From Phormidesmis sp. (GTDB lineage: Bacteria; Cyanobacteriota; Cyanobacteriia; Leptolyngbyales; Leptolyngbyaceae): a stretch of 64,000 nt of DNA. Positions 8,364 through 27,600 of the stretch are shown piece by piece; position 1 is the first letter of the stretch; each line of letters starts with the position of its first letter. Made by a program: the position numbers and the translations under genes. The stretch lies in assembly GCA_965248535.1 (NCBI GenBank), contig CBDFJR010000002.1:736001-800000 (forward strand), read 5' to 3'. Under the pieces are notes generated by a model. The model saw only the letters and a program-made list of their open reading frames with translations. It was not told where the DNA came from and searched no databases.

Positions 8364-11300
8364 ATGACCATTTCATCCACCTCTCCTGACTTGCTCAGAA
8401 GCCCGCTGCAAGTTTCTGCTGATCTACAGCAGCTAGATCAAAAAAGCGCCTCACCGTCTTTCACAACGCCGCCGTTTCTCTCTCAAACTCCTCGATCTGC
8501 AACGTCGCTGCTGTTTGTCGATCGGGGGGTTGATCATTACCAAGATTTAATTGCCGAGGTCAATCCTGACACAGAGGTGCATCTACTCGATTCAACGCAA
8601 GATGCTATTTCGCAAATCACCCAGACGCTGATCGGGCGCACGGGCGTTTCTAGCCTGCATATTCTCTCTCACGGGGCCGCAGGGCGCTTAGAGCTTGGCA
8701 CTCATTGGGTCGATCGCGGCGCTCTAGAGAATCATGGGGCTGAGGTCAAGTCTTGGAGCCTTGCTCTGACTGAGAATGCCGATATTTTGCTCTATGGCTG
8801 CGAGGTTGCCGACGGTGAAAGCGGCAGTGCCTTTGTACGATCGCTGAGTCAATTGACCGGGGCAGATGTTGCCGCCTCTAACAATTTGACGGGTAGCGCT
8901 GCGCTGGGTGGAGACTGGACTCTAGAGATCGCCACCGGAGGGATTGAATCGGCGATCGCGTTCCAGCCAGAGGTCATTGACTATCGCGGTGTGTTGGCTC
9001 CCGTCGTGACCCTGCCGAGTGAGTCTATTACCTACACCGAAAATGGAGTAGCGATCGCCGTGGGCGCTGGGGCAACGGTGACGGCCCCTGACAATTTTAA
9101 TGGGGGCAGTCTCACGGTGGGTCTAAGTGCGACGGTTAACTCTGATCGCACTGCCGATCGGCTCTCGATTCAAGCTGGGGGACTGATTAGTGTCGATGGA
9201 AAATCGATTCAGTATAGCGGGGTCACGATCGGAGAGTTCACGGGTGGTTATGGCGCTGAAAATTTAGTCGTTCAATTTACCAATCCGGCTGCTAGCGCGA
9301 TCGCAGTGCAGGCATTGCTGCAAACTATTACTTATAGAGACGCATCAGATAATATTCCGGCAACAGATACCCGCACGTTATCGATCACGCTGAATGATGG
9401 TATTGACAACAGTCAAACAGTCACTAAAACCATTAATTTAATAGGCGTTAATGACGCACCCGTTATTAATACTCTTTTATCGCTAGACAAAGATACTGGA
9501 TTGCCCAAAAACGGCACCTGGCTGGCTTATCAAGATTCTACTAGCGTGGCAGGTGGCACTGCAACCGTGACGGCGGGCGCTAACGGACTGACGCTTAATA
9601 GTGACGGAACGGCCTATGCAGGGTTTAGCAACTATGCCGTTAATTATTCGCTCAACCCGCTCAACCCCAGCATCACAATCAGTCTGCGAAATCCTAACTT
9701 TCCGGTGCTCGATCGCAGCAAAGGCTTTCTCTTAAGTTTTTCTGCTCAATTAAATAGTGAAACTTCTGGTTTGGTCGATCGCAATTTGGATGGTAAAACT
9801 GACCGATCGGGCTTTAGCGTTGTCCTTCTCAGCAACGACCTAAAAGGCATTGAACTGGGCTTTCGGAGCGATCGGATCTTTGCCCAAGAAGATGGCACAA
9901 CTCAGATCAATCCTGCCCTAGAGCCAGACGGCACTCAGGCAAACAAAACCCGCACCCTCTTCACTCAAGGAGAATTCACGACCCGTGTCACGACTACTTC
10001 GCCCACCCATTACAGCCTAGGAATTTTGGGAGATCTCTACACGCTTTATAGTGGTGGAGTGGCGATCTTGAGCGGTCAGTTGCGCGACTATAGCGCCTTT
10101 CAGCCTCAGACCATCACAGCAAATGTTCCCATTATTGGTGCGGTCAGTGTCGTTCCGCCTAGCCCTTATCGGCAAAAGAATCTGATCTTTTTGGGTGACA
10201 ACACCTCGTCAGCCGGGGCAAGTGTCACCTTATCTGGCATTGACATCGTGACTAATACGGCGCTGCCAACGCTGACTGTTAAACAAAATGCAGCGATCGT
10301 GATTCCCAATCTGCAAATTAATGACTTTGATGGGGGCACGAATGCTTTAACCGTGACTCTGACGGCTCTGAATGGAAGAATCACCGTCAAGAATAACTTA
10401 ATCAATGGCGTGACTGACATAGCAGGAAACGGTACTAACATCGTCAAGGTTAAAGGCACGGTTAGCCAAATTAATACCACTCTACTTAATTCAGGATTGA
10501 GCTATAAGAGCAACGTTACGTTTAGTGGCACTGATACGATCACAATTAATGCTGATGATGGCGCACCTGCAACTCCTTCTAAAACGCTGACGATGACGGT
10601 GACTCCTGATCCTACGGTGGCTCAGAGACACGATATCCTCTGGCACAATAATCAGTCTGGTGAGACGGCGATCTGGCAAATCAATGGCTTAAGTTTTACG
10701 GCTCCGGTGAGTCTGGCGACAGGGCCCGATCTGAGTTGGAAAATTGCCGCAACTGGAGACTTTGATCGCAATGGCACCACTGATCTGTTGTGGTTCAACG
10801 ATCGTAGTGGTGAAGTCGCTTTCTGGAAGATGAACGGCACCACCCTAGAAAAAGTGGTTTCTGTCGCAACAGTCGGTCTGGAATGGAAGATTCAAAGCAC
10901 GGGCGACTTTGATGGCGATGGTAAACTCGACGTTCTGTGGCGTAATTTTAATACCGGAGAGATCGCGTTTTGGAAAATGGACGATATGAGGCTCGATCAA
11001 GGAGTCTTTTTATCGCCGATCGTCAAAGATACCCAATGGCAGATTCAGGGCACGGGCGATTTTGATGGCGATGGCAAGCTCGATATTCTCTGGCGCAACT
11101 TTGGCACAAGTGGAGAAATTGGCTTCTGGAAGCTGAACGGGATGAGTTTTCAGTCGGCTACCATTTTGGCACCCGTGGTGCGCGATGCGTCGTGGGAGAT
11201 TAGCGGCATTGGCGATTTTGATGGCGATGGCAAGCTCGATATTCTCTGGCACAACCGTCAAACGGGTGATAATGCTTTCTGGAAGCTGAATCGGATGAGC

Positions 11301-11534
11301 TTTGATCAGGCGATCTTTACCTTAAAAACGGTTGGGTGGCAGATCGAGGGCACCTCAGACTTTGATGGCGATGGCAAACTCGATATTCTCTGGCGCAACC
11401 TTGGGAGCGGTGAGATCGCCCTGTGGAAGATGGACGGTATGACGTTGAAACAGGGGATTGTGCTGTCGCCCAATGTTAAAGACCCGGCTTGGACGATCGA
11501 GGGGATCGATCGTTTTGATCAAGTGATTTGGTAA
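8364..11534 (+). CDS. Large exoprotein: DUF4347 + cadherin-like repeats + probable choice-of-anchor Y domain + C-terminal FG-GAP/VCBS-like propeller
   Basis: LHILSHG, DILLYGC, GADVAAS..LTG..GGDW (DUF4347); VNDAPVI; GFSVVLLSNDLKGIELGF; six DxLWxN blades with GDFDGDGK; AGGAG RBS at 8355 supports ATG 8364. Confidence 0.85.
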   Translation: MTISSTSPDLLRSPLQVSADLQQLDQKSASPSFTTPPFLSQTPRSATSLLFVDRGVDHYQDLIAEVNPDTEVHLLDSTQDAISQITQTLIGRTGVSSLHILSHGAAGRLELGTHWVDRGALENHGAEVKSWSLALTENADILLYGCEVADGESGSAFVRSLSQLTGADVAASNNLTGSAALGGDWTLEIATGGIESAIAFQPEVIDYRGVLAPVVTLPSESITYTENGVAIAVGAGATVTAPDNFNGGSLTVGLSATVNSDRTADRLSIQAGGLISVDGKSIQYSGVTIGEFTGGYGAENLVVQFTNPAASAIAVQALLQTITYRDASDNIPATDTRTLSITLNDGIDNSQTVTKTINLIGVNDAPVINTLLSLDKDTGLPKNGTWLAYQDSTSVAGGTATVTAGANGLTLNSDGTAYAGFSNYAVNYSLNPLNPSITISLRNPNFPVLDRSKGFLLSFSAQLNSETSGLVDRNLDGKTDRSGFSVVLLSNDLKGIELGFRSDRIFAQEDGTTQINPALEPDGTQANKTRTLFTQGEFTTRVTTTSPTHYSLGILGDLYTLYSGGVAILSGQLRDYSAFQPQTITANVPIIGAVSVVPPSPYRQKNLIFLGDNTSSAGASVTLSGIDIVTNTALPTLTVKQNAAIVIPNLQINDFDGGTNALTVTLTALNGRITVKNNLINGVTDIAGNGTNIVKVKGTVSQINTTLLNSGLSYKSNVTFSGTDTITINADDGAPATPSKTLTMTVTPDPTVAQRHDILWHNNQSGETAIWQINGLSFTAPVSLATGPDLSWKIAATGDFDRNGTTDLLWFNDRSGEVAFWKMNGTTLEKVVSVATVGLEWKIQSTGDFDGDGKLDVLWRNFNTGEIAFWKMDDMRLDQGVFLSPIVKDTQWQIQGTGDFDGDGKLDILWRNFGTSGEIGFWKLNGMSFQSATILAPVVRDASWEISGIGDFDGDGKLDILWHNRQTGDNAFWKLNRMSFDQAIFTLKTVGWQIEGTSDFDGDGKLDILWRNLGSGEIALWKMDGMTLKQGIVLSPNVKDPAWTIEGIDRFDQVIW

Positions 11535-11563
11535 ACTTGGAAAACAAAACTCGGAGGGTTTTA

Positions 11564-11782
11564 ATCTGGCGATCGCTCTTGGGAGAGAGCCATCCCGATG
11601 TGGCAACCAGCCTCAACAATTTGGCAGTGCTTTACGCCAACCAAGGACGATTGACCGAGGCAGAACCCCTGTTGATGCAGGCGCTAGAACGATTTCAGCA
11701 AACTTTAGGAAATCAGCATCCCGATACGGTAGGAACGCAGCAGAGTGTGGTGTATTTGCGGCAAATGATTCAGGATGTTTAG
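11564..11782 (+). pseudogene. C-terminal remnant of a kinesin-light-chain-type TPR protein
   Basis: IWRSLLGESHPDVATSLNNLAVLYANQGRLTEAEPL...LGNQHPDT is about 1.5 TPR repeats with no credible start. Confidence 0.75.
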
Positions 11783-11789
11783 CAGAGCC

Positions 11790-11915
11790 GACCTTTGAGC
11801 TTAAAACTTCGACCTCTAACCTCGGAAGTTTGACTTCTGACCTCAAAACTTTGAGCTTTGAACACGAAACTTCGACCTTTGAGCACGAAACTTCGACCTT
11901 TGAGCACGAACGAAC
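11790..11915. repeat. Degenerate 21-bp (3x7) tandem repeat, about 6 units
   Basis: gacctttgagcttaaaacttc / gacctctaacctcggaagttt / gacttctgacctcaaaacttt / gagctttgaacacgaaacttc / gacctttgagcacgaaacttc / gacctttgagcacgaa. Confidence 0.88.
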
Positions 11916-11961
11916 ACGCCGTGAAGCAAAGCCATCGTGTTCTGAACCATTAAGCCGATCT

Positions 11962-12744
11962 CTAATCGTGAAGCAACGTCTCGATCGTGTCCCCCACTTG
12001 CAAACGTTTACCGACTTCAGACGGGGCAATGCGAGTGTTGACGGCGAGACGATAGAAGTGGTTAAAGCGCGAAACGGGGGCCCAAGCTGGCAATTCTGCT
12101 TTGCGATTGGCGACAAACGTTTTTTGAAACTGAGCCGTCTTTACTCCCGATCGGGCATCACGAGTCGGCACCAGACAGCGCTGACAGGGGTTGATTCCTG
12201 CAATCTGCACGTCACCTAGCTGAAACTCAACGGGCTGATCGTCAGAATATAAGCGATCTTCCCAAAAAGCAGGCACGTCTGCAATTTCTAAATTAGTCCG
12301 AAAGCGGTTTCGCACCCCCTCTACTGAGAGGTCAGGAAACCACGAAGCAACCTGCTCGATCGAGGCAGCACTGACGATCGTCGGCCCCGGTGAATCTGGA
12401 TCGTCAGGAAACCCAGTGACTAGATTTTGCTGAAGCTCAACCGCAAACCCAAAAAAATCACTCAACCAAGCCCCGATCGCCGATCGCCCATGATCTAAAT
12501 GAAAGCTCACCGGATTCTCACCCTGAACTGAAAGCGTCACCACTCTAGCGCTGAGATGAAACTGCGATCGTAGGTGATGAATCGCTGCGGTGCGTTTGCC
12601 GTTCACCCATTCTCCCTGGCGATCGACGATGGCAAATTCCCGATCGTGGGCCAAAGATCCGCCGGGCAAAATTTTGGTCTGCGTCACCGAAACGCCATCT
12701 AGAGATTTAATTGGGTAAACAAAAATCTGGCTCAAGCGAGGCAT
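11962..12744 (-). CDS. MOSC domain-containing protein
   Basis: IFVYPIKS, DREFA, RFRTNL, PCQRC; ATG 12744 gives the typical start. Confidence 0.9.
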   Translation of the reverse strand: MPRLSQIFVYPIKSLDGVSVTQTKILPGGSLAHDREFAIVDRQGEWVNGKRTAAIHHLRSQFHLSARVVTLSVQGENPVSFHLDHGRSAIGAWLSDFFGFAVELQQNLVTGFPDDPDSPGPTIVSAASIEQVASWFPDLSVEGVRNRFRTNLEIADVPAFWEDRLYSDDQPVEFQLGDVQIAGINPCQRCLVPTRDARSGVKTAQFQKTFVANRKAELPAWAPVSRFNHFYRLAVNTRIAPSEVGKRLQVGDTIETLLHD

Positions 12745-12833
12745 AGGGCGAGTGACTACTGAAGTGGGGTTGATTTTTGCCTGAGAATCGTAGCGTTCAG
12801 GAGTCCCGATCGCCGCGATTCTCCTAAACGCTT

Positions 12834-13883
12834 TTAGGCGGTTCTCGGCTTTTTGAGTTGGCGAGAAAGCACTTGAGATTTTAGACCGACCACGATCGCT
12901 TCGATCAATCGGGCCATGCCCGTCGTGTTGACATAAGTCGGAGTTTTGCCGCACTGCTTGGTGGCTTTGACAATCCCTTCAGTGTGTCGGTGCGAGGCAT
13001 ACCCCGTCAGCACTATGACTAGATCGGCATCCAAAATTTGCTGTTCTGCCTGGGCCCAAATCTGAGGGCCGGTTTGTGTAGTTGCCCAAATCAGTTCAAT
13101 ACCAGAGCCACGAAACCGATTGCGAATCGCAGTTTCGAGGCGATCGTGCCCACCCACAATCACCACTTTGCCGTCAAGGTCAGAATAGCTTTCGGGGCGG
13201 CTAGACGATTGAGTGCGCCGGGGCGTAAAAGACGTGGTTCGCCCTTCAAAGTTGAGTCGATTTCGCTGCGCCTGGTCTGCAATAAAGGTGAGGGTTTGTT
13301 CATAAGTGCCCCGCAGTCGGGCCGTGGGGAGCGCATTTTCACTGGCTTTACGATCGTAAGCATTGATCTGCGCCATCAGCGCATCTACGACTTCTGTTAA
13401 TGCACCAATGGCTTTGAGATCTTCGATAAAGCCTTTAATCGCAATAGCGGTATCGGTCGCATTGTAGAAATCAGTCTGGTCGTGAATCAGATCGAGTAAG
13501 TCAGCTTTTAATTGGGTTCGCCACCGAGTTAGGGCTTGCGTTTCTTGCTGAGAAATCAGTTGCTCTTCTTGGCGCAAAAATTCTGCGTCTACGAGCTTTT
13601 CGGCGTTGAGTTCTACGTCTTGAAGCTGTTGACGAAGGTTATCTGCCTGCTGCTCTAGCTTTTTGCGGTTTAGGCTGTCACTGATTTGATTGGTCTCATA
13701 ATCAGCGATTAAAGATTCTATTTGGGCCAGCAGGGGGGTGAGGCGACCAGTCAGCGCGTCTGCGGCTTCCTGAATCTTGCTATCGCGCTCTTTCTGAATT
13801 TGGTGTTCTTTGAGTTCTACTTGTCCGTTTTCTAAAAGTGATTGCGTTAACTGCTCAATTTCGTCAAGGTCTGAGAAATTCAT
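12834..13883 (-). CDS. Coiled-coil protein with C-terminal DUF2325-like domain
   Basis: Long heptad-rich N-half; VVIVGG...ADLVIVLTGYASH...K pattern. Confidence 0.75.
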   Translation of the reverse strand: MNFSDLDEIEQLTQSLLENGQVELKEHQIQKERDSKIQEAADALTGRLTPLLAQIESLIADYETNQISDSLNRKKLEQQADNLRQQLQDVELNAEKLVDAEFLRQEEQLISQQETQALTRWRTQLKADLLDLIHDQTDFYNATDTAIAIKGFIEDLKAIGALTEVVDALMAQINAYDRKASENALPTARLRGTYEQTLTFIADQAQRNRLNFEGRTTSFTPRRTQSSSRPESYSDLDGKVVIVGGHDRLETAIRNRFRGSGIELIWATTQTGPQIWAQAEQQILDADLVIVLTGYASHRHTEGIVKATKQCGKTPTYVNTTGMARLIEAIVVGLKSQVLSRQLKKPRTA

Positions 13884-14022
13884 AAATCACCGCTCATCCA
13901 AAAGGGTGACTTTATTTTACTAGATCGCCTCACGTCACCCCTTCAAAATGTCGATCGTTTCTGCCCGATCAAGGCAGTTGAGGGGCAAAACCTGAAACCA
14001 AGATGCACCTAATCTAGACCAA

Positions 14023-14107
14023 CGGAGAGGGGGGGATTCGAACCCCCGTTGAGTTGCCCCAAAGCGCATTTCGAGTGCGCCGCATTCAACCGCTCTGCCA
14101 CCTCTCC
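14023..14107 (-). tRNA. tRNA-Ser(CGA)
   Basis: GGAGAGG acceptor stem, GCGCA-CTCGAAA-TGCGC anticodon arm, long variable arm, GGTTCGAATCC T-loop. Confidence 0.96.
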
Positions 14108-14141
14108 AAGAGAGCTGATAACTCTCCGATTACCCATAATA

Positions 14142-16412
14142 CTATATGGATCGAGCATTGCTCTCAGAAGATTCTGAAGTCTTTTCAAACCCGGTTGCCG
14201 GAGTCCAGCGGATGGCTCCATCTTGCCCCAGAGCGAAGATCTGAGTTCCCCGATGCTGAAGTTGAGCCAGCGTCTCAGGATCGACTCGGTTTGAGTAAGC
14301 GATCGCCACAGTTGGTTTGAGCCGATCGAGCAGAAACGGCTGAAGCGCCTTCCCAGACCACCAAAGCACCTGATTATTGTTTAACGCTGGATTTGACAAC
14401 AGATCGGTTTGCTGATTTTTTGGGCTATCTTTGAGCCAAAGCCAGTTTTGGGCACCGACTTGAAACCGCACTATCTCAGGCTCTCTGCTGATTAGCTGCA
14501 CCGACGTTGAGTGCAGTTGCATTGACTGCCCGACTTCAAACGGCAGATAGCGCCCTTGGTGAGCCTGAACAGTTTGGGCGATCGTGGCCGTTTCGGCCGC
14601 CGTTAAACTCGCCAGTTGATAAAAAGATTTGGCGGGAGTTTGAGTCAGCAGGGCTGACCACCCAGCGCTGGTGGTGGGGGTCGCAAGGGTGGCGATCGCC
14701 CAGTCTAATTGATTAACGCCTTCTTTTTGCAAAAATGGCAACACCGTTGAACTAGCCGTTGATTCATCGCCACTGTTGACTAAGGCCGTTCGTCCATGAT
14801 CTTGAATCACCAGGATTGGATCGCGCAGCGTTGCGAGTAGTGTGATTTGAAGTGAGTTTGTTTTGAGATACCAGGCAGGCCCAAAGACTAAACTGATGGC
14901 GATGATTCCCAGCAGCCATGAATGAGGCTGCACGCTGGGTCGCAGCCAGGGCAAGCAAATCAACGCATATAAGATCACAGCCGAGAATGCTGAAATGGTG
15001 CCAACAGCGATCGAGTTACCAGGCAAATTGCAAAAGAAATCAATAATAATCAGCATTCCATAGGTCGGGTAATGCAGTAGCCAAGCGGATGCACTGCCCG
15101 TGATCGGCACGATCAACGCCAGCAGAGCGCTGACCACTCCTCCCAGACTAATCACAGAGATTAAAGGAGTCACGATCACATTAACGAGAATGCTGTAGGG
15201 AGAGAGAACGCCAAAGGCATATAGCTGGAGGGGTAATGTCCAAATATACGCCGCGATCGGGACGGCGATCACAGACGTAACCATAGTAGGCAGCCAGTCT
15301 AGCCACTTCACTAAGGGCGGGGCGGTGACTTGCAAGCCCATCGTTGCCAAAAAACTTAATTGAAATCCCAAATCCCAAATCCACATCGGGTTAATGATTA
15401 GAAGAATGATTGCTGCGAGTAACAGTCCTCCTAACGGTTTAACGCTGCGCTTCATTAACAGTCCTACTAACAAACCCATGCCCATAATCACCGCTCTTAA
15501 AACGGATGGCTCTAGGCCCGTTAACCCCAAAAATATCAGCAGGGCTGCCGCTCCGATCCCAGCCTGTAGGCGAGTTGAGCAATGCTTCATCAATGCTAAT
15601 ACCACACTCAAAATAAGCGATACTTGAAACCCTGACGCTGCCAGGGCATGAGACAGTCCAATCCGGGTGAATTGATCTTTGATATCAAAGGGCAGATCAA
15701 CGACTCGACTGCCTAACACCATTGAGCTAACGAGTTGCCCTTCTGGGCTGCCGAGCCAGTCGATCTGCGATCGGATAATTTTTTGGCGAATCATCCACCA
15801 GCCCCATGCCCGATCGCTGGGATGCAATATCTCGATCGTTTGTCCTCGCAGTCCTGCAAAACAGCCGTCTTGTGCCAAATAATCCTGAAAGTTAAATCCC
15901 CCTGGATTGGTCGCAGGTTTCGGTTTGTAGAGAATGCCCGCGATCGCGATCTCTTGACCGGGGGTGACTCCCGTGGCTTGCAGCAAAGGCACCGTGACAT
16001 AGAGCTTTCCGCGCACTTGGTCGGGCTGTAGGGTATCAGATCGAGTCGCTCCATCCACGCGACTGACAGACAGCCAAAGCTGTGATTTCCCACTGCGGTT
16101 GAGCCGAGGCAGTTCCATCACCTGTCCCGAAACGGTGACTTGTTGCAGTTGATTTGTGTTGGCTAATAGTCGGCTGATGTCGGTCACGCCGGGATGGGGC
16201 ACTCGCAGTTGAAAATATAAACTCGCGACTAAACCGACGACTCCTGCCCCGATCCAAATTCTAGAGCTAAACCGACCTTTCCAGAGTTTAGGTAGAGCGA
16301 TCGAGGCTCCACAACCCAGCCCCAAAACGACAAGTCCGCCCCAAACCACTCCGGTTGAGAGCAGCCCCAAAATATAAGCCAAGCTTAAGATCACGCCGCT
16401 GGTCAGATTCAC
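14142..16412 (-). CDS. comEC: Competence protein ComEC/Rec2 family
   Basis: NPGGFNFQDYL, GLSHALAASG, PSVLRA, GFQLSFLAT; start uncertain (GTG 16412 or upstream ATGs). Confidence 0.92.
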   Translation of the reverse strand: MNLTSGVILSLAYILGLLSTGVVWGGLVVLGLGCGASIALPKLWKGRFSSRIWIGAGVVGLVASLYFQLRVPHPGVTDISRLLANTNQLQQVTVSGQVMELPRLNRSGKSQLWLSVSRVDGATRSDTLQPDQVRGKLYVTVPLLQATGVTPGQEIAIAGILYKPKPATNPGGFNFQDYLAQDGCFAGLRGQTIEILHPSDRAWGWWMIRQKIIRSQIDWLGSPEGQLVSSMVLGSRVVDLPFDIKDQFTRIGLSHALAASGFQVSLILSVVLALMKHCSTRLQAGIGAAALLIFLGLTGLEPSVLRAVIMGMGLLVGLLMKRSVKPLGGLLLAAIILLIINPMWIWDLGFQLSFLATMGLQVTAPPLVKWLDWLPTMVTSVIAVPIAAYIWTLPLQLYAFGVLSPYSILVNVIVTPLISVISLGGVVSALLALIVPITGSASAWLLHYPTYGMLIIIDFFCNLPGNSIAVGTISAFSAVILYALICLPWLRPSVQPHSWLLGIIAISLVFGPAWYLKTNSLQITLLATLRDPILVIQDHGRTALVNSGDESTASSTVLPFLQKEGVNQLDWAIATLATPTTSAGWSALLTQTPAKSFYQLASLTAAETATIAQTVQAHQGRYLPFEVGQSMQLHSTSVQLISREPEIVRFQVGAQNWLWLKDSPKNQQTDLLSNPALNNNQVLWWSGKALQPFLLDRLKPTVAIAYSNRVDPETLAQLQHRGTQIFALGQDGAIRWTPATGFEKTSESSESNARSI

Positions 16413-16460
16413 GGTTACACCCATCTGCAAAGCTTCAGGGTGCCCATTCAACTCGCGATT

Positions 16461-16938
16461 CTAAATAGACAGACCCAGTTTTAACCCCAAAGCACCATGC
16501 AACAGAAGTAACCCGATCGCTGCCGTGCCCAGATAAGCGTGAACCATGCGGAATCCTGCCTTTCTCGCCGCCAAACCCGGAAGCGGCGATCGCGCCATTC
16601 AAAAACAGCAGCCCTAAAACCACATTCCCTGTCCAAAAATGCGGACTTTCTAGAATTGGTTTGTGCTGCATGACGAGGGACAACACGCCGCCTGTGTAGC
16701 CCAGTGTGATGAACAACGTCATTAACGGAGCAGCTTTTCTGTGATCAAGGCGATTTTTAATTGCAACTTCTTTGTCTGCTGCGAGTCTCCCCTGCCAGCC
16801 TGACCACGCGACATAGCTGCCCAGGATCAGCACCACAATGCCCATCATGGCTGGGTGCCCCCAATGCACGATCGGGGCTGGCACGCCCAACCCGCGAAAA
16901 AAAGCCGCGATCGGCTCTAGCGTCTCACTCAAATTCAT
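16461..16938 (-). pseudogene. DUF4079 family membrane protein with a 1-nt frameshift near 16560
   Basis: HWGHP, SPHFWTG; removing one base after GGEK gives AGFRMVHAYLGTAAIGLLLLHGALGLKLGLSI* ending at 16461. Confidence 0.75.
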
Positions 16939-17103
16939 TCTCGTGTGCTCCAAACTCAAGGGACAGATAGCGTTTTAGCAAATATTAAGAAAATATAACG
17001 TTCTTTCAGGCAAGTCAAATATATCGGACGCTACAAACCCTCAGCCCGATGGTCTTGATGATCCTGCGGCCTCTCAGTTGCAGTACGTTTTGTGTGGGAA
17101 TAT

Positions 17104-18204
17104 CTACGCGGCCCGGTTAATCTTAAACGTCACTTTGTATTTGTAGATCACGTATTTGCCTTTGTTATCCTCAGTCGGTTTCAAGGTGCCTTCTTTTTGA
17201 GCGATCGTGACTAATTTATTGACCTCGCTAGCCGCCAGATCATCCAAGATTCCATACCCTGTGTGCCCGGTGATCGTGAGTCCGCGAGTGACTAGAACAC
17301 CATCAGGAGCCACCAAAAGATTGATGTAGGCTGGCTCAGGTTTCTCAGATAAATTAAATGGCAAATTATAAGGAACGTCGGTTACTTCGATCGGTTTCTC
17401 AGCCAAACTCCCTTCAGGAACGCTGCGATCGGTGATATTTTTCTTAAACCACTCGCCATAGCTATTCAAGTTATTACCCGCCACTTCATTCGGGGTTGCA
17501 CCCGGAGATCGATAGGTAATTTTGTCTCGCAACCGCCGCATATCGTCTATCGCTTTTGCCCCAGGACGTGCTGTAGAGGGAGTAGCAGGCGGAGTCTGCG
17601 GAGTGATGGGCGATTTTGAAGGGTCGCCAGTAACGCCCGATTGAAGGTTGGCAATGCGCGGATCTGTCTGCCCGCTGGAGGGTGGGGGTGGCGTTGAGTT
17701 GGGGGATTGAGTGGGAGTCGGTTGTGCGGGCGATCGGGGAGCCGTCGATTCTGGAACAGGATTAAAGTTCTGGGGAATTTGATTCGGCTGAAAGAAAGTT
17801 GTGGGTCGAGAAGGACGGAAAGCAGGCGGATCAGGAGGCACGATCGGGCTTGAATAAGGCAAAATTGGATCTTGAAACTTATAGAGCGACGCATCTGGAG
17901 GAATCAGTGGATTGAGATCTTGCCCTAACGGAATTTTTACAGTGCTGTTCGGCGTTTTAGGAATCGGCGGCAACCCCACTTGCGAGGTGGCAGCTTGCGC
18001 TTGAGGCAGTGAATTGAGCAACCGCACCACTCGTTGGTTATCGGGCTTGGTCTCCTCAGTAGTAAACAGAGGCAGCCACAAAAAGAAAAATAAATGGGCC
18101 CCCACTGAGCCAATCACCGCCAGCGAAAACGGCTGACGCAAGGTATCCGGCAGGTTATGCAAAAACGCAGATAGGGCAGACTCAGAAGCGATCGGCTGAT
18201 TCAT
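17104..18204 (-). CDS. TonB-like protein (TM anchor, Pro-rich linker, divergent TonB C-terminal-like domain)
   Basis: TM helix with SxxxH (SVGAH), P/S/T/Q-rich linker, INLLVAPDG...TGYGILDDLA. Confidence 0.6.
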   Translation of the reverse strand: MNQPIASESALSAFLHNLPDTLRQPFSLAVIGSVGAHLFFFLWLPLFTTEETKPDNQRVVRLLNSLPQAQAATSQVGLPPIPKTPNSTVKIPLGQDLNPLIPPDASLYKFQDPILPYSSPIVPPDPPAFRPSRPTTFFQPNQIPQNFNPVPESTAPRSPAQPTPTQSPNSTPPPPSSGQTDPRIANLQSGVTGDPSKSPITPQTPPATPSTARPGAKAIDDMRRLRDKITYRSPGATPNEVAGNNLNSYGEWFKKNITDRSVPEGSLAEKPIEVTDVPYNLPFNLSEKPEPAYINLLVAPDGVLVTRGLTITGHTGYGILDDLAASEVNKLVTIAQKEGTLKPTEDNKGKYVIYKYKVTFKINRAA

Positions 18205-18374: not shown

Positions 18375-18614
18375 CAACCTTTATATAAGCAGCGTTAGAA
18401 CCCCCGCCCCTAGGGGCAATTTTAGTAAAGACGTGCTTGGTGGATTATCTTGAATCTGGTAACAACGGCTCTAGCGTCGATAGATCAGTGGGCGATCGGC
18501 TTCGCTCACCTCCGAAAGATCGGTTCAAATCTCAAGTTGAGGTGGGTGCAGATAAATCTTCGGCTGTTGCTGTTATCAGTGATCGCCAACCCGATCTTGG
18601 GCAAACTAATCACT

Positions 18615-18731
18615 ATGTTGGCAATTGAGACTCTCACAATTCATCGCATCACGACGCAGCGCCCCATCCCGGTCAAAGACGAGGTGGCTGCGATCGTGAG
18701 TCTTTTCCGGCAGCAGGAGCGTGGTGCATGA
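18615..18731 (+). CDS. Putative 38-aa upstream ORF coupled to cyaC
   Basis: MLAIETLTIHRITTQRPIPVKDEVAAIVSLFRQQERGA*; its TGA overlaps the cyaC ATG (ATGA). Confidence 0.4.
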   Translation: MLAIETLTIHRITTQRPIPVKDEVAAIVSLFRQQERGA

Positions 18732-21700
18732 AACCTCGTGACGTAAACAAGCAAAAACTTCTGGTTGTCGATGACGAGCCTGATAACTTAGACCTCCTCT
18801 ACCGCACGTTTCATCGAGAGTTTAAAGTTCTGCGGGCAGAAAACGGCCCTGCAGCGCTTGAAATTCTCTCAAAAGAAGGCGACGTGGCGGTGATCATCTC
18901 CGACCAGCGAATGCCGATGATGAGCGGCACCGAGTTTCTCAGTCTGACCGCAACACAATATCCCGACATTATTCGGATCATTCTCACCGGGTACACCGAC
19001 GTTGAAGATCTTGTCGAAGCGATTAACGCGGGCAAAGTTTTCAAATACGTCACAAAACCGTGGGATGACGAAGAGCTAAAGCGCGTCGTGCGTCAGGCAG
19101 CCGACACCCACAATGTGCTCAAAGCGAGAACTCAAGAGCTACGGCGCACCCTGCGGCGCGAGTCGCTGCTGAACGCGGTCACCAACACAATTCGCAGTGC
19201 CCTGAGCTATCGGCAAATTTTGCAAACGATCGTCGAAACTGTCGGCAGCATGTTTGAGGTGAGTTGCGGCATTCTGCGACCCTTTCAAGACGGGCAATTA
19301 GACACGGAAGGATTTGTCTATTGGCAAACCCCAAAAATGGCTGAGTTCGGCGCTCAAGATCTGCTCTTTCAAACGATTTGGAAGACTCATCAAGTTGAGG
19401 TGATTCAAGACGCAGCGATCGATGAGCTGATTCAGTCTCAAGGCTTGCCGCGTCAGCAGGCTTATCAAGCGGCCGACATTCGATCAAGTCTGATTGTGCC
19501 GCTAATTTGTCAACAAGAATTAATGGCGGTGCTGGCGCTGCATCAGTGCGGTGAGTCTCGTCAGTGGCAGCAAGATGAAGTCGAACTGATTAGCATGGTG
19601 GCCGATCAGGCGGCGCTGGCGCTGTCTCAGTCCTATGCCTATGAGCAGGTTCGCGCTTTGGCAAAACGGGAAGCGTTGATTAACACCATTACTACCGCCA
19701 TTCGATCGAGCCTTGACCCGCAGGAAATTTTTGCCGCTATCACTCAGCAGTTAGGACAAGCCCTTCACGTCGATGGCTGTGCGCTATCTTTGTGGACGGA
19801 GAACGATGAATTTGTGCAACTGGTGGGCTTACACGATTCCAACTGGCAGCCTAGCGAGGCAGTCGCCCCAAAAATCAGCGGGTTATTGCCTTTAGAGCGA
19901 TCGCTGCCCCGATCGGAGTCTCCGATCGAGGGCAACCCAGTGCTCAAGCAATTGCTGGCTTCTCAGCAGCCCGTGGTGCTTGAAGACTTATCTCAACACC
20001 CAGACATGCAGAGTGGCGACACGACGGTTCACGTCCCGGCTCGTGCGCTGCTGGTGGTGCCCCTGATCTCAGATGGCAAAATTATCGGCAGCATTTCTCT
20101 GCGCCAAAATCATCAGATTCGCCTCTGGAAGACCTCAGAGATTCAACTCGCGCAGTCTGTCGCTGCCCAGGCCGCGATCGCCGTTCAACAATCTCGTCTC
20201 TACCAAAAAACTCGCCACCAGGCCGAGCAACTTTTGGAACTCGATCGTCAAAAAACTGAGTTTTTCCAAAATATTTCCCACGAGTTTAGAACGCCGCTGA
20301 CGCTGATGGTTGGGCCGCTAGAGTCGGCAACGGCGCAACAAGAGGGGTTGACTTATGAGGAAGCCGCGATCGCGCTGCGAAACTCTCGGCGATTGCTGCG
20401 GCTGGTCAATCAGATTCTCGACCTGCAACGGCTCGATGCTGGACGGATGCAGCCTAGTTTTCGCCCTTGCAATCTCGAAGGGGTGATCAGCCAAGTGGTT
20501 GATTCCTTCCGTCCCTACTGCGAGAAAAAGGGGCTGACCTTGCTGACTCAACTCAGTTCCTGCCCTCTGACTTATTTGGATCTAGAAAAATTTGACAAGG
20601 TTCTCTACAACCTGTTGTCTAATGCGATGAAGTTTACGGCAGCAGGCAAGCAAATCACGATCGTGGCCCGGTCAGAAGGCGACCACTGTCTGCTGCAAGT
20701 TATTGATACCGGAATCGGCATTCTGCCTGACCAAATTCCCTATTTATTTGAGCGCTTTAGGCAGGCTGAGGGGTCAGCTAATCGCAGCTATGAAGGCACC
20801 GGGTTAGGACTCTCCCTCGTCAAAGAACTTGTCGAACTGCACAAAGGGCAAATCACCGTCGAGTCAGTTTATGGCGAAGGCACAACTTTTAGCATCTGGC
20901 TGCAAAGCGGTAGAGCGCATCTACCGTTAGAACAGGTGACTGAAGATCAGGCAGAACTGCAATCAAGCCGTGCGGCAGTTGAGCTAGCAGGTTTAGAAAT
21001 ATCCCTTCAAGAAGATTCAGACTCTGCAAATCTGACGGCTGGTTTAGAAGACTCAATTCAAAATTCAAAATTCAAAATTCAGGAGTCTGACGCATCTCCG
21101 ATTCTCGTGGTGGATGATAATGCTGACCTGCGATCGTATGTGTCGGGCATTTTGCGAAAGCAGGGCTATCAAGTCTGGACTGCCCGCAATGGGGCTGAAG
21201 GCTTTCAGGTGGCGCAAAATCGTCGCCCTCATTTGATCGTGACTGATTTGATGATGCCGATCGTGTCAGGGCTTGACCTGATCCAAATGATTCGTCAAGA
21301 TGAGGATCTCAAGGGCATTCCGGTAGTTTTGCTGACGGCCAAAGCCGATGAAGAGACTCGCATCGAAGGGGCTGAACTGGGGGCCGATGCCTATTTGTCA
21401 AAGCCGTTTAACGATCGTGAGCTTTTGGCAGAAGTGCGGAATCTGCTGGCGCTCAAAGCCAATGAGCAGCGAGTGGCGCAACTCAACACCTATTTAACCG
21501 AGTCGGTGCTGAAGCGATTTTTGCCGCCCGCTCTGGTGCAACGAGCCGCCAAAGGTGAACTGCTGCTCGATCTCCGCCCAGAACCTCGGATGATCACGGT
21601 TTTATTTAGCGATATTGTCGGGTTTACTCAGCTTTCTAACACCTTGCGATCGCGCCGCGTCGCGGAGTTGCTCAACGAATATCTGGCCAGCATGACCCGC

Positions 21701-22165
21701 GCTGTGTTTGAGAACGGCGGCACGGTGGACAAGTTTATGGGCGATGCGATTTTGGCCATCTTTGGGGCACCCGAAGAATTGACTCCCAATGAGCAAGTCA
21801 GACGGGCGATCGCGGCTGCCCGTCAGATGTATCGATCGCTGGATGAACTAAACGATCGCTGGCAGGCTCAAGGCATTAGTCGGGTGCAGTTTCGCTGCGG
21901 CATTCATCAAGGAACGGCCGTCGTGGGGATGTTTGGCGGCGAAGAACGAGCTGACTACACGGCGATCGGCCCCAGTGTGAATATTGCCTCTCGCATTCAG
22001 GCGGCCGCAGAGCCAAACTGCATTCTCGTGTCTGCGGCGGTTGCTGACTATCTCGACGAAGATGTGATTACCAAAGTCAGCCCGCTAGAACTCAAAGGCG
22101 TAGATGAGACAGTCTTGACGTTTTCAGTCAATCCTTATTTAGAGGTGCCTTGCAAGCGACCATAG
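18728..22165 (+). CDS. cyaC: Hybrid histidine kinase-adenylate cyclase (REC-GAF-GAF-HisKA-HATPase-REC-class III cyclase)
   Basis: VVDDE, IISDQRMP, ISHEFRTPL, NLLSNAMKF, GTGLGL, TDLMMP, FSDIVGFT, DKFMGDA, DYTAIGPSVNIASR; matches the CyaC domain order. Confidence 0.95.
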   Translation: MKPRDVNKQKLLVVDDEPDNLDLLYRTFHREFKVLRAENGPAALEILSKEGDVAVIISDQRMPMMSGTEFLSLTATQYPDIIRIILTGYTDVEDLVEAINAGKVFKYVTKPWDDEELKRVVRQAADTHNVLKARTQELRRTLRRESLLNAVTNTIRSALSYRQILQTIVETVGSMFEVSCGILRPFQDGQLDTEGFVYWQTPKMAEFGAQDLLFQTIWKTHQVEVIQDAAIDELIQSQGLPRQQAYQAADIRSSLIVPLICQQELMAVLALHQCGESRQWQQDEVELISMVADQAALALSQSYAYEQVRALAKREALINTITTAIRSSLDPQEIFAAITQQLGQALHVDGCALSLWTENDEFVQLVGLHDSNWQPSEAVAPKISGLLPLERSLPRSESPIEGNPVLKQLLASQQPVVLEDLSQHPDMQSGDTTVHVPARALLVVPLISDGKIIGSISLRQNHQIRLWKTSEIQLAQSVAAQAAIAVQQSRLYQKTRHQAEQLLELDRQKTEFFQNISHEFRTPLTLMVGPLESATAQQEGLTYEEAAIALRNSRRLLRLVNQILDLQRLDAGRMQPSFRPCNLEGVISQVVDSFRPYCEKKGLTLLTQLSSCPLTYLDLEKFDKVLYNLLSNAMKFTAAGKQITIVARSEGDHCLLQVIDTGIGILPDQIPYLFERFRQAEGSANRSYEGTGLGLSLVKELVELHKGQITVESVYGEGTTFSIWLQSGRAHLPLEQVTEDQAELQSSRAAVELAGLEISLQEDSDSANLTAGLEDSIQNSKFKIQESDASPILVVDDNADLRSYVSGILRKQGYQVWTARNGAEGFQVAQNRRPHLIVTDLMMPIVSGLDLIQMIRQDEDLKGIPVVLLTAKADEETRIEGAELGADAYLSKPFNDRELLAEVRNLLALKANEQRVAQLNTYLTESVLKRFLPPALVQRAAKGELLLDLRPEPRMITVLFSDIVGFTQLSNTLRSRRVAELLNEYLASMTRAVFENGGTVDKFMGDAILAIFGAPEELTPNEQVRRAIAAARQMYRSLDELNDRWQAQGISRVQFRCGIHQGTAVVGMFGGEERADYTAIGPSVNIASRIQAAAEPNCILVSAAVADYLDEDVITKVSPLELKGVDETVLTFSVNPYLEVPCKRP
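21055..21082 (+). repeat. Heptamer tandem repeat (AATTCAA x4) inside the cyaC linker
   Basis: aattcaa aattcaa aattcaa aattcag, encoding (S)IQNSKFKIQ(E). Confidence 0.9.
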
Positions 22166-22274
22166 TTTGGGGATCGCCAGCAACCTGACCCTGTTTCTCA
22201 AATCGTTACGACCCTTCAGAAATGTCAACCAGCGACTAAGATGAGGTTGACGCTAAGTTTCTAAGTGGTGGACG

Positions 22275-23351
22275 ATGAACCCGGCGACTGATTTTCGGTC
22301 TGGGAGCGATCGGCGACACAGCGATCCCCCCAATCTCTGGCTTGCGGTGTTGGCAGGCTCACTGATAGTGCATTTGTTGCTGTTGCTGTCAGGACGCTTG
22401 TTTTTAGTTCGCACCCCTAATCAAAAATCTGCGGGGGTAGCGGCCCCGATCGAGCTAGTCGATATTCCTGCAAAGTCTTCTAGTCAAGCGACGCAAACCA
22501 CTCGGTCAGCCGCTCCTAAGGTGATCACAGAGTCTACAGCTTCTCAAGGTGCCGTCAGTTCTGAAACGACCTCTCAAAGCAGTGCGCCGATTCAGCCTGC
22601 GGTCATCCCCAAAACCACCCAAAATCCGGTGCGATCGGCTCCCCAAACGCCTCAGGCACCGCCCAAGCCCGATCCTATAAAACAACCTGCGCCTAAACCC
22701 ATTCGTGAGCAGAAGCCAAACCCTCAGGCTACAGTTACGCCTAGTCCCCTAGCTTCGTCTCAACCCAGCCCCTCGCCGATCGCTACACCTAGTCCCCTAG
22801 CTTCGTCTCAGCCCAATCCCTCTCAGCCTGCGACTCCTGACCCTTCGGAGTCGGAAAAACCCCCGGTTTCGTCAGGGAATCCTCTATCAAAACCGTCGGT
22901 TCCGGGTGGGGCAGGGTCTGACTCAAGCGCACCAAATTCTAAGCCTCAAGCGCCTGATCAGCCCTTGGGATCTGTTGCAGTAGGTGAGCAACGAGGCAGC
23001 GGTAGCGGCGTGCAAGTGGCTTTGTCAAATCCTCAGTTAGGAGATGATAGCAGAACGGTGCCTGATCAGCCTGCTCGACCGACGGCGTTGAGGCAGTCAA
23101 TGCCTGAGGCGAACTATCCATCAGCGATCGGGCTAAATTTTGGGCAGAGTGTTCGCCTGAGGGTGTTGGTGAAAAACACGGGTAAGCTCGACCCATTGGC
23201 GATCACGGTGTTAGAAGGCAGTCGCTCGATCGAGTATGACAATCTAGCGATCGAGTTAGTCAAGCAGTGGGCATTTGATCCGGCGCTGCAAGCTGGGAAG
23301 CCCGTTAACTCGCTTCTAGATATTTCTGTGCGGCTAGATGCTCTGCGGTAG
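22275..23351 (+). CDS. TonB family protein
   Basis: TM with SLIVH, PIELV, Pro-rich linker with duplicated TPSPLASSQP, C-terminal YP...VRLRVLV...YDNLAIELVKQWAFDPA...GKPV. Confidence 0.82.
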   Translation: MNPATDFRSGSDRRHSDPPNLWLAVLAGSLIVHLLLLLSGRLFLVRTPNQKSAGVAAPIELVDIPAKSSSQATQTTRSAAPKVITESTASQGAVSSETTSQSSAPIQPAVIPKTTQNPVRSAPQTPQAPPKPDPIKQPAPKPIREQKPNPQATVTPSPLASSQPSPSPIATPSPLASSQPNPSQPATPDPSESEKPPVSSGNPLSKPSVPGGAGSDSSAPNSKPQAPDQPLGSVAVGEQRGSGSGVQVALSNPQLGDDSRTVPDQPARPTALRQSMPEANYPSAIGLNFGQSVRLRVLVKNTGKLDPLAITVLEGSRSIEYDNLAIELVKQWAFDPALQAGKPVNSLLDISVRLDALR

Positions 23352-23442
23352 GGCACATTGACCTCTAGAAATTTGTGGGCAAACGGTGCAAAGATTGTGT
23401 TATTGTTAAGAGCGCTTGAACCAAGTCAAGCTATCTAGAAAT

Positions 23443-23513
23443 GCGGGTGTAGTTTAGTGGTAAAACCTTAGCCTTCCAAGCTAATGATGCGAGTTCGATT
23501 CTCGCCACCCGCT
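23443..23513 (+). tRNA. tRNA-Gly(TCC)
   Basis: GCGGGTG/CACCCGC acceptor stem, TTAGC-CTTCCAA-GCTAA anticodon arm, GTTCGATTC T-loop. Confidence 0.96.
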
Positions 23514-23722
23514 TTTTATATTTTTTAAGCCTATGTGTTTAAATTCTCTGCTGTGAACAATGTGATGAGTTGAGGAATTGCAATCTCAATCACAGGTTTT
23601 CTATAAGTCGTTAATTTTTTGTTTAAAGCACTGCTCAAGAATGATTAGAGCCAATGTTATCACTGTTAATGCGTTTAGTATAAATAATCTCTATCGCTAG
23701 CAATCAATAACTGACTAAAAAT

Positions 23723-24136
23723 TCATTCTAAAACTGGTTTTCTTAGAGACTTGATCTCTCCTCGCTTGGTTTTACGATCGAGCCGTCGTTTTTGAGAACC
23801 TCGACTGGGTTTAGTTGGTCTGCGAAGGCGGGGCACCACCACGGACTGTCTAATTAACGCTTGCAGTCGGCTTAACGCTTCCTCGCGGTTTTGCTCTTGG
23901 CTGCGGTGTTCTTGGGCTTTGATCACAATGACCCCATCTTGAGTAATGCGGTGATCGCTCAGGTTGAGCAGCGCTTGCTTATAGCGATCGGGCAGCGAAG
24001 ACTCCTGAATATCAAACCGTAAGTGAATCGCAGTAGAAACCTTATTGACGTTTTGACCGCCTGCACCCTGCGATCGGATTGCGGTCATCTCAATCTCGCT
24101 GAAAGGAATGGTGACGTGATTAGAAATTTGTAGCAT
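23723..24136 (-). CDS. arfB: Alternative ribosome rescue peptidyl-tRNA hydrolase
   Basis: RSQGAGGQNVNKV, RSQEQNREEAL and basic tail RRPTKPSRGSQKRRL. Confidence 0.95.
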   Translation of the reverse strand: MLQISNHVTIPFSEIEMTAIRSQGAGGQNVNKVSTAIHLRFDIQESSLPDRYKQALLNLSDHRITQDGVIVIKAQEHRSQEQNREEALSRLQALIRQSVVVPRLRRPTKPSRGSQKRRLDRKTKRGEIKSLRKPVLE

Positions 24137-24686
24137 ATCTTAATCATACAAAAAAGGAAACCGAACTCTAAATAGATGGCTGCGGGTTAGCGTTGATACT
24201 TTGCTGCATGGTTTCCTTCATAAATATCTAGAGTAAGCGGCTTGAGTCACTCCAGCGCTTATGTAAAAAAACTTATAATTTTGACAAAGGGTAATGCAGT
24301 AGGCTAGCTTTGTTAAGTGTTTTTCCGGTATGCAATTAGACTTTAAGCAAGATGAGTTAACTTCTTGAAGCTTAGATGCCTCCCAACGCTCCGACAACTT
24401 CCCTGCCCGACGCTTGAGTTTCTTTGATAAAGCAGTCTTAGTTTCTGTCAAAGTCACTATTTAAGTGTGTGCTTCGTGCTCTTCTATACAAGAGAGTGAA
24501 AGTAGCCGATCGGGTAATAGTTTCGCTGGTTTAGGTCGAGTTAATTTAACCGTTAATCACCCATTAGGCATCGCCTCGTCTTGCTTTGAGATAAGGCGAA
24601 CGTAGTCCGATGGCTTATTTTGTTGCCTCTAACGCCCCCTAGAGGTGGTTTCGTTGCCCGTGCTCTTCGCGTAAGGATAGAGAATC

Positions 24687-27600
24687 ATGGAATCCGCTCA
24701 ACTGAATTCTGACTTGTCACGATCGCCCCTACAACCCGCTTTTCCAACTCTTCAGTCAGATCTTGAACGTGCGGTTGGAAGCATCGGAGCAAATAAGGGG
24801 GCACCTCAGTCGCAGGAAACCCCCTTATTGGTCAGTCAGATTGCAGCGACTCCGGCGAGTGTCCAGCTTTTTGATTTAACCAGCAATACGGTGACATTCA
24901 CGGGCAGCAACGCCGCAAATGAACTGTACTTAAAGATTGATACCAGTCAACTTTTAGAGTTCAGTATTGATGGAAAAAATTTCTCCAAGCTCGAAGGACT
25001 GCATCTGTCAGCCTCCACAAAAATCACGGTTGATCTGGGTGCAGGCAATGATTCTCTGTTCTTAGATGCTTCTCTAACCAATGCCCTCAAGGGTTTGGGC
25101 GGTAAGCTGATCTTTGCAGGCGGCGATGGAAATGACACCCTGTTTGGGTCGAGTGCAGACACAGTTTGGAACATTACAGGCAACAATGCTGGGAATATTG
25201 ACAACGCGATCGAGTTCAGCGGCGTTGAAAATCTCACAGGGGCAGCCAACAACAAAGACACGTTTGTATTAGCTCCAGGAGGCAGCTTAAGCGGTTTAGT
25301 CGATGGTGGAGCCGGGGGGTTTGATAGCTTTGTAGCGCAGGGAGGCCAATACAATTCGCTGACCCTTGTCTGGACGGGTTCTGATTCAGGAAAGATTGTC
25401 CTTGATAATAACTCGATTCGCTATGCCGGGCTTGAGCCTATCAACATCAGTCCGGGAAGCACGCTACAAAATGTCACGATCGATCTAAGTCTTCTCGATG
25501 TGCAGAGCGTTGATCAAAGTGGAACTTCGGTTCTGTTTCCGTCGGTCGATCGGGCCATTCTTGAGGCAGACACGGCGGGCAAACTCAGGTTTTCAGGAAC
25601 GCACACCGTTTCAAATCTGATTGTCGATCAACCGTTTGAAGCCGCAATCTTCAACAATCCTAGCCAATCTCTAACGATTAAACTTGGGTTTGGGAATGAC
25701 CAACTCGATATTAAATCTCTAGATCCGGCTTTTGCTGCGGCTCTCAATATTCAAGGCGGCGATGGCAACGACACGGTGAACCTCACAGGCACCATCAATT
25801 TTGCTGCCCCCCTCACAATTGATGGCGAGAAGGGGAACGATACCGTCAATATTACGGGCAGTGTCACCCTACCCGGTCAAACTGCCAACATCACAGCGGA
25901 AACCATCAAGCTCGGCGGCACTCTGTCAACAAGTGCCACGACGAAGGCAGGCGATATTAAACTCAATGGCTATAACATCACCTTAGATGCGGGTGCCCAG
26001 CTTTTGGCAAAGGGCGCAACTGCCGGAAAAATTGATATTTCAGCGATCGACACCACCGCAATCTTTACACCTTTAATCAATTACGATAGCTCTAGCGTTG
26101 ACTTTACGATTAATAGCGGGGCCAAGATTGAGGGCGGAGATGTCACGATTCTAGCGACTGCTAATAGTCAACACATTCTCGACTCACAAACCATTGTTGA
26201 ACAAGGCCTCGACACCGTTGCCAAAGTCATTGAAGGACTGACCCAAATCGGTGCGGGTGCCTCGATTGCTAAGGCAACGGCCCATATCAACATCAATGCG
26301 GGTTCACAGATTAGTGCTAACAATTTCATTGCCTACGCCAGCACGATCGCTTATGCTTCGACGGCACCGATTACCTTCATGGTTGGCCCAGCGTTAGGCA
26401 TTGCGATCACTGACTCGACTGTTACAGTCGCGGGGACGGTGACTGCAACTGGAGATGCCACGATTCGATCGACCGCCGATCACACCTTGGATGTCGTATC
26501 TGACACGAGTGGACTTGCCGGAATTGCAGGTTCAATAGCGGTGAGCGTCGTCGATTCTAAAGCGATCGCTAACGTGACTGACCAAGCGAACTTAACGATC
26601 GGGGGCAATCTCTTTGTTCAGGGAGATACGGTCGATCGCAATCGCACCCTAGCCCGCTCAACGGCTGGCAAAGATGGCAACGTCGGTGTCGCGATTTCAG
26701 TCAACGTCGAGAACGGTGAAACTAGTGCTTTCTTAGATGGCACCGCTGCTGTAGCGGGCAATATTGTCGTCAATGCTACTCAGAAAAAAGAGTCACTTCC
26801 GGTCAAAAAACTCTTTATCTTGCCAGCGTTTGGCGACGGCATCTCCGCTAGCGCCGGGGTTGGCAGCAATTCAAAGGGCGACTTTTTAGACGACCAAAAA
26901 GCGGCGGCGATTTCTAAAGTCATCACTCCAATCAAAAACTATGCGACCAAGAAGTGGACTGAGTTTCGCAACAAGACCCCAGAGACGGCAGGCAACACCA
27001 ATGACCCCGGCATCGATGTAGCGGCAGCTTTTGCGATCGTGGTAGACAACAACACTGCAACCGCCCGCATTGGCGATGGCAACCCAACCGATCATGGGGG
27101 CAAAAAAGCTATTGTCACGGCTGACGGCACCATTAGCGTCACCGCCAAGATTGAGAATGTCCCCAACATTTCCGCCAGTTCCGCCGCTAAAAAGAACCCA
27201 GAGGCGACAGCCGAGAGCGGTGCCAATAAATTTGCAGGGTCGCTAGCGGTAGCGATCGGGGTTTATAACAATAATGCCCAAGCCTACATCAACTCTGATG
27301 CCGAAGTGGATGCCAAGAAAGCGCTCACTGTTCAAGCGCAGGCGCTCAATGACTATCAGCTAAAGTTTGGTGTCAATTTAGTCAGTCCTTTCTTGCAGCA
27401 GGCGACTTTTAGCACCGATGATGGCGCAAAACTGGTCAAAAATGGTGACATTGTTGAAGTGCGGGGCGGCCACGTTGGCAATGGCGACACAGGCACCTGG
27501 TATAAATACATCGGCGCGGTTCCTCAGAGGACGATCGACCTCAAAAATGAAGACTTTAGCAGCACAAACAACTGGGAAAGTCTCGGAAATGCGGTGGCCT

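Follow-up and report, generated by a model that had tools for sequence, protein, structure and literature searches.

Giant adhesins with RTX repeats, such as LapA, SiiE and MpIBP, are exported by type I secretion, in which the C-terminus leaves the cell first. Other giants without a classical signal peptide are headed by the LEPR-XLL motif (NF012209; Planc_extracel, PF07595), and LEPRxLL is presented as a proposed export signal of planctomycete surface proteins in PMC8567305, citing Studholme 2004. Here we analyse a 64,000-nucleotide stretch (the window) of a Phormidesmis sp. genome (5.0 Mb, 99.76% complete) in which two exoprotein genes, p1 (8364..11534, 1,056 amino acids) and p2 (24687..42959, 6,090 amino acids), share the N-terminal stretch DLxRSPLQ. 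A first-pass annotation had taken this stretch for a common export, retention or processing leader. The analysis indicates that the two proteins carry tails of one class, fast-changing, rich in Ser, Thr, Pro and Leu and predicted to be disordered, on which DLxRSPLQ is probably a chance peak and not a signal read by a dedicated machinery. Coordinates refer to the forward strand of the window unless a contig is named.

The p1 and p2 tails resemble LEPR-XLL in standing at the N-terminus of giants devoid of a classical signal peptide, and both kinds of leader precede either DUF4347 or a domain of the type that follows the tail of p2 (its first domain). However, LEPRxLL is kept across phyla and stands after an Arg-rich run, whereas tails of the p1/p2 type are near neutral or acidic, rich in Ser, Thr and Pro, and have no invariant residue. 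The analogy drawn earlier therefore extends to the N-terminal position, which is that seen in relatives from other phyla, and breaks down at each LEPR feature that could be tested. RTX adhesins of the LapA, SiiE and MpIBP type resemble p2 in being very large proteins without a Sec signal, with RTX repeats ahead of a conserved C-terminus and with type I adaptors encoded in the genome. Unlike them, p2 has no exporter gene beside it, its neighbour being an Lpg1974-type barrel gene; compared with a folded N-terminal retention module with a LapG site, the tail of p1 is predicted to be unstructured, and no RTX repeats were found by profile search of p1.

Position and chance level of the shared stretch

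The DNA reads DLLRSPLQ in p1 (residues 9-16, 8388..8411) and DLSRSPLQ in p2 (residues 9-16, 24711..24734), with Asp as residue 9 counted from the ATG codons at 8364 and 24687, just as first described. The 1,056-residue form of p1 that starts at 8364 is present in a public protein collection, and its frame is open further upstream (TTG at 8319, ATG at 8322). Among the 24,665 stop-to-stop segments of at least 60 amino acids in the genome, L.RSPLQ is confined to p1 and p2. A second, 19-residue block had been aligned downstream and is present in both proteins (p1 residues 35-53, 8466..8522; p2 residues 45-63, 24819..24875), but only 6 of its 19 positions are identical, and in p1 it runs into the first strand of DUF4347 (residues 48-53 of the structure model), to which its last five residues belong.

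Shuffling of the p1 leader against the p2 leader (100,000 shuffles) gave a frequency of 2e-5 for seven of eight identities in register and of 1.1e-3 for the same match at any offset, for a pair that had been chosen by eye within a very large scan. When residues 2-40 of 4,132 crudely called genes were compared, seven of eight positions matched in register in 21 pairs that show no relatedness across the first 600 residues; 20 of these are pairs other than p1/p2, some of them being shared nucleotide-binding motifs. Also, the tetrapeptide RSPL is 1.7-2.0 times over-represented in the genome. The codons of the two copies do differ, which had been taken to place the match at protein level, but this difference says little because RSP often lies on the core of an over-represented octamer, the RSP of p2 included. 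This core, CGATCGC, belongs to the 65-fold over-represented octamer GCGATCGC, which we take to be HIP1, and underlies 228 of the 384 RSP tripeptides of the genome. The RSP of p2 sits on ACGATCGC (24719..24726), one base off GCGATCGC, and that of p1 is not on the CGATCGC core.

Conservation in relatives

The expectation that a leader of this kind would be kept in orthologues failed, the stretch not being kept in p1 relatives and being absent from p2 orthologues with a readable start; in its exact form it also heads no other protein examined. In the closest relative of p1 (P0040) it reads DLLRSLLP, which still fits DL.RS.L; the two tails are identical at 31 of 47 positions (66%), against 155 of 162 (96%) for their DUF4347 domains. 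For the next relative (P0041) the corresponding counts are 14/43 and 112/159, and neither this protein nor the syntenic p1 orthologue in genome G004 retains a trace of the motif. By these sequence comparisons the leader is the fastest-changing part of p1.

The pattern DL.RSP was found in none of 97 leaders from loci of other genomes (106 DUF4347 hits, less 9 with short or open starts) and in none of the 15 p2 orthologues with a readable start. Among 349 collected proteins it occurs in only three records, all with p1's own start. Searches with the N-terminus of p2 were equally negative: in 89 other genomes of the family no hit to its first 65 residues improved on E 0.02, no close relative was found in 7 genus genomes, two collection scans or a search of proteins of 299-2,000 amino acids, and an Atlas search returned no usable match. 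At the DNA level, a degenerate pattern of ATG plus motif had matches in 86 of 90 family genomes at counts like those of a reversed control, that is, with no gross excess, in a search that did not enforce the reading frame and left 162 matches unlisted. Among the variant rows listed for contigs from sequencing runs none fell inside the two tails, which is uninformative given 3,294 further rows outside that listing. Since relatives do not keep the stretch, the match between p1 and p2 is likely to be a chance peak.

A class of N-terminal tails

The tail of p1 spans residues 1-48 (8364..8507; 47% Ser/Thr/Pro over residues 2-46) and that of p2, which starts MESAQ, residues 1-60 (24687..24866). Both belong to the compositional class of the tails that precede DUF4347 in cyanobacterial relatives, which measure about 30-70 residues, differ strongly between orthologues and have no invariant motif; cyanobacterial-type DUF4347 tails average about 42 residues, with 37% Ser/Thr/Pro and 5% Lys plus Arg. 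Structure modelling of p1 gives the tail no secondary structure and a predicted local distance difference test (pLDDT) score of about 60, against 95-98 for the DUF4347 domain. As previously reported, neither start carries a hydrophobic signal-like stretch, the best 11-residue hydropathy being 0.66 in p1 and 1.15 in p2 versus 2.59 in the neighbouring barrel protein.

When 4,132 gene starts were ranked by a composition model trained on DUF4347 tails of other organisms, 9 of 13 pattern-defined exoprotein candidates came within the best 175 (p 1e-6), and the first six included two RTX-bearing phosphatases and a PA14 protein. A tail class thus exists on signal-less exoproteins of this genome, although part of the composition signal may reflect the general make-up of extracellular proteins. 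A profile of 86 DUF4347 tails ranked neither p1 nor p2 in the top 40 of 4,088 frame starts. What remains of the proposed shared leader is that the same kind of tail heads both proteins; the octapeptide itself is not conserved, heads no other protein examined, and its looser version failed a held-out test (see below).

Several cyanobacterial exoprotein tails end in DP[LVF]TG shortly before the first domain, and [DN]PL occurs in 10 of 15 giant tails versus 1.4 expected. DPLTG was considered as a general tail word and rejected, since it is found at a single gene start in this genome, apparently not of an exoprotein.

Alternative explanations of the match

Several observations weigh against a pure chance peak. 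Global alignment of the two tails scores above shuffles (P 5e-5) and, with the motif removed, stays weakly above them (P 0.01 global, 0.04 local). Seven of eight identities at any offset were found in none of 1,462 pairings of a DUF4347 tail with a giant tail, so that p1/p2 exceed the background of their class, and the best match of the p2 tail among 88 tails is p1. The two tails are more alike than two random starts. Further, no close orthologue of p2's N-terminus was found, so that the conservation of its copy is not directly assessable. A looser pattern, L-x(1-4)-[SNDAT]-PL, chosen out of 13, was enriched in the discovery sets: among non-redundant DUF4347 tails it occurred in 9 of 36, where 3.1 would be expected, and among giant tails in 7 of 15, where 1.5 would be expected. 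Finally, a third FG-GAP family, represented here by an FG-GAP/PPC/M8-like protease (C5:1353352-1355505), has DLL[TS]A[SA][PL]L near residues 5-13 in 6 of 6 orthologues from the genus and comes closest to a third instance of the motif.

These points could be accommodated if the tail carried a degenerate, lineage-restricted element, approximately D-L-x(1-3)-[SA]-[PL]-L, that is recognised during export or processing. The factor recognising it could be the DUF4347 protease, working on its own protein and in trans on p2, which has no DUF4347. We consider such an element unlikely, albeit the strongest of the alternatives. It would account for a 7/8 match in register despite diverged DNA, for the stretch kept in the third family and for the DL.RS.L of P0040. 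The xPL enrichment in both discovery sets was not seen in 302 Ser/Thr/Pro-rich control starts, and the His and Cys of DUF4347 are kept in 15 of 15 giants and, among the best 120 of 1,379 DUF4347 hits, in 119 (this set of 120 underlies part of the conservation counts). However, when the looser patterns were written down in advance and applied to 39 new, dissimilar tails, the test failed (3/39 versus 2.0 expected and 8/39 versus 5.5 expected, with starts assigned by rule and some probably wrong). Moreover, D[LV].{1,3}[SNA]PL is present in only 1 of the 36 and 0 of the 15 non-redundant tails, no such element lies near the start of the syntenic p1 orthologue, and many DUF4347 proteins have tails of just 10-25 residues. 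In the third family the tail is conserved elsewhere too, and the element does not clearly stand out.

The likeness could also stem from a direct copy, whereby recombination in this lineage transferred the tail of p1 or of a near paralogue to p2, up to the first DUF4347 strand and with no signal function. The alignment is indeed collinear from residue 9 to the SLLFVD/VQLFD strand and the genes lie 13 kb apart. A matrix built from the WNR tail subfamily (a post hoc choice, picked after the likeness had been seen) also ranks the p2 start second among 4,132, and one member of that subfamily (P0129) begins with the same MESAQ. Yet the 5' DNA of the two genes is unlike (local score 19 versus a shuffle mean of 19.4; over the first 17 codons, 22 of 51 bases are identical), and this speaks against recent copying. 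Nor would a tail that diverges by a third among close strains be expected to keep seven of eight residues once its DNA likeness is gone. In addition, the P0040 tail aligned locally to p2 scores at family background, p2 ranks only 129 on the full-tail profile, and other cyanobacterial giants also have a tail joined straight to a p2-type first domain. A copy of this sort therefore appears improbable, slightly more so than the degenerate element.

The DUF4347 domain and architecture of p1

Behind its tail p1 consists of DUF4347, a choice-of-anchor Y domain and a C-terminal FG-GAP/W-rich propeller. DUF4347 (residues 49-210, 8508..8993) scores 197 bits against PF14252 (cut-off 24.6), and its predicted structure has a caspase/legumain-type fold with His-Gly and Gly-Cys motifs; the invariant pairs are His103-Gly104 (codons 8670..8675) and Gly145-Cys146 (codons 8796..8801). 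On this model the domain is a predicted clan-CD-like cysteine protease. A member of the family with a solved structure, Tce1, is described in PMC13323088 as a putative cysteine protease. Tce1/PA0256 (PDB 9QPE) is an injected effector, whereas the DUF4347 of p1 heads a predicted surface protein; p2 has no such domain. At the C-terminal end of the domain, Tyr207 and Leu211 do not vary across 27 sequences, and a self-cleavage region could lie there.

The FG-GAP/W-rich repeats of p1 (10614..11531) are related to repeats of p2 and of five other proteins of the genome. FG-GAP repeats are thus found in both proteins, as had been noted. Their description as otherwise different holds in part: the FG-GAP repeats are common to both (34-38% identity), and the orthologues of p2 carry DUF4347, a domain that profile search did not find in p2 itself. 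The close relatives of p1 that bear names come from Phormidesmis, Stenomitos, Myxacorys and Leptolyngbya.

After the stop codon of p1 (window positions ~11560-11950) lies a repeated element with many short matches in all genus genomes, often in tandem with a period of ~126 bases and probably an interspersed repeat. Elsewhere in the genome, a DUF4347 gene (892 amino acids) and a 2,868-residue FG-GAP reading frame, which are in different frames, overlap end to start (C5:749295-760524, reverse strand). Genes like this pair are single frames of 3,746-3,793 amino acids in three genus genomes, and the split is probably a frameshift or sequencing error.

p2, its orthologues and the adjacent barrel gene

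The product of p2 comprises the tail, the first domain, 32 LktA_tand_53 stretches in the first half of the protein, RTX nonapeptide repeats toward the C-terminus (PF00353, 13 stretches), an FG-GAP propeller and a conserved C-terminus. The last RTX-like repeats and the C-terminal segment (42684..42956) are kept in 11 of 11 orthologues aligned and form a candidate type I secretion signal. In p2 and these 11 orthologues the segment after the last RTX repeats centres on PS[PA] followed by SP-x-LQ-x-Y; no separate Pfam or NCBIfam family was reported for it.

Nine bases after p2 begins a gene for an outer-membrane barrel of the Legionella_OMP/Lpg1974 family (PF05150; 42969..44198) with a signal-like N-terminus. 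Homologues of the barrel occur in 18 of 89 other family genomes, and 17 of these loci were fetched. The barrel gene stands directly behind the giant in 11, ~1 kb in front of it in 4, divergent in 1 and ~10 kb away in 1, so that a DUF4347/FG-GAP/RTX giant adjoins the barrel in 16 of 17 loci, which are not independent events because the genomes are kin. These giants match the C-terminal 1,000-2,050 residues of p2 at 41-52% identity, and two of them also match ~3,250 residues of its repeat region (34-35%). All 15 p2 orthologues with a readable start begin with a tail followed by DUF4347. The first domain of p2, by contrast, is common to other cyanobacterial giants but was found in only 7 of 400 other genomes of the class (E below 1e-20) and in none of 39 family genomes. 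We infer that p2 is a giant of this family whose front module was lost or exchanged. One 8,268-residue cyanobacterial giant (L105) has a tail, DUF4347 and the p2-type first domain in series, an arrangement from which the front end of p2 could derive.

In the 5 genomes that hold relatives of p2's first domain, a barrel query retrieved nothing. A single-sequence structure model of the barrel was unusable (pLDDT 41), and a promoter scan upstream of p2 stayed at shuffle level. Lpg1974-family barrels of Legionella are described in PMC11841132 as porins tethered to peptidoglycan. Gene neighbourhood makes the barrel a candidate for anchoring the giant or letting it out. The open-access literature, supplements aside, yielded no paper on the giant-plus-barrel pair or on the tails, and the available text of PMC13723633, PMC8262886, PMC10952558, PMC13715827, PMC4390845 and bioRxiv 10.1101/2023.11.21.568195 describes no such cyanobacterial tail.

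Export route

The genome encodes two type I adaptors above the TIGR01843 cut-off, and C39-domain proteins beside HlyD-like genes. The RTX repeats and conserved C-terminus of p2 make its export by a type I system likely. The SecA_DEAD/M50-HlyD/GAF-HlyD module of Kamneva, Poudel and Ward 2015 (PMC4452313), a paper whose main text, as available, leaves cyanobacteria unmentioned, was not found in this genome: no M50 match lay in one frame with an HlyD_3 match, and the only SecA matches were to a 950-residue protein, with no second SecA. The secA gene and its neighbours appear twice, on two contigs in opposite orientation and with equal scores (C2:2492-11000; C5:987000-995745), pointing to overlapping contigs in the assembly or to a recent duplication.

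NF012209 gave no match on p1, p2, the isolated leaders or the genome, with a model that is weak because a known LEPR protein (P0015) scores just 18.8 bits against a cut-off of 17. In 251 genomes of the class LEPR-XLL gave one partial match, a weak test that included no positive-control genome. Of 145 hits related to p2's first domain, 58 contain a LEPR-like word within residues 1-200. The relatives with cyanobacterial names (7 of 10 looked up) start with acidic low-complexity tails, and others with LEPRxLL.

These cyanobacteria could have replaced LEPR-XLL/SecA2/M50 with a route of their own. In it the DUF4347 protease would cut a degenerate D-L-x(1-3)-[SA]-[PL]-L site in the disordered tail, in trans for p2-like giants that lost the domain, and an Lpg1974-type barrel would hold the giant at the outer membrane or pass it through. 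We regard this composite route as doubtful, about on a par with a direct copy. It is very improbable that the second block, ETPLLVS in p2, was inherited from non-cyanobacterial giants as a LEPRxLL export tag and has since decayed. LEPRxLL does head relatives of the p2 body, and the block immediately precedes the first domain, but NF012209 finds neither leader, the Arg-rich run is absent (Lys plus Arg 6.7% in the p1 tail and 5.2% in the p2 tail versus 23.9% in 71 LEPR leaders), the M50-HlyD fusion and second SecA were not found, and in a tree of the first domain the starred clade, with its ten LEPR-headed rows, does not include p2, whose position lacks firm resolution (90/79).

Implications for cyanobacterial surface giants

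In the preferred explanation, a common tail class with a chance peak on it, the DUF4347 module of p2 would have been lost or exchanged, while a tail from the same gene kit was either retained or acquired; this tail would serve as a loose spacer or disposable pro-segment. The giant would leave the cell through a type I system by way of its RTX-preceded C-terminus, C-terminus first, which would leave the N-terminal tail under little constraint. The DUF4347 of p1, as modelled, would be a self-processing cysteine protease that may trim the tail or release a passenger, and the barrel may anchor the giant.

Some cyanobacterial exoproteins, HesF among them, are secreted well without a recognised signal according to PMC4390845. 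A tail acting as a signal would, if true, bear on this signal-less secretion, for which new signals are wanted in engineering; the evidence speaks against the DLxRSPLQ octapeptide being such a signal. Cyanobacterial DUF4347 and RTX giants appear to do without the LEPR tag of other phyla. Their predicted DUF4347 protease would offer these giants a self-processing step that is open to testing, and the pairing of giant and barrel genes points to a candidate partner in their display at the cell surface.

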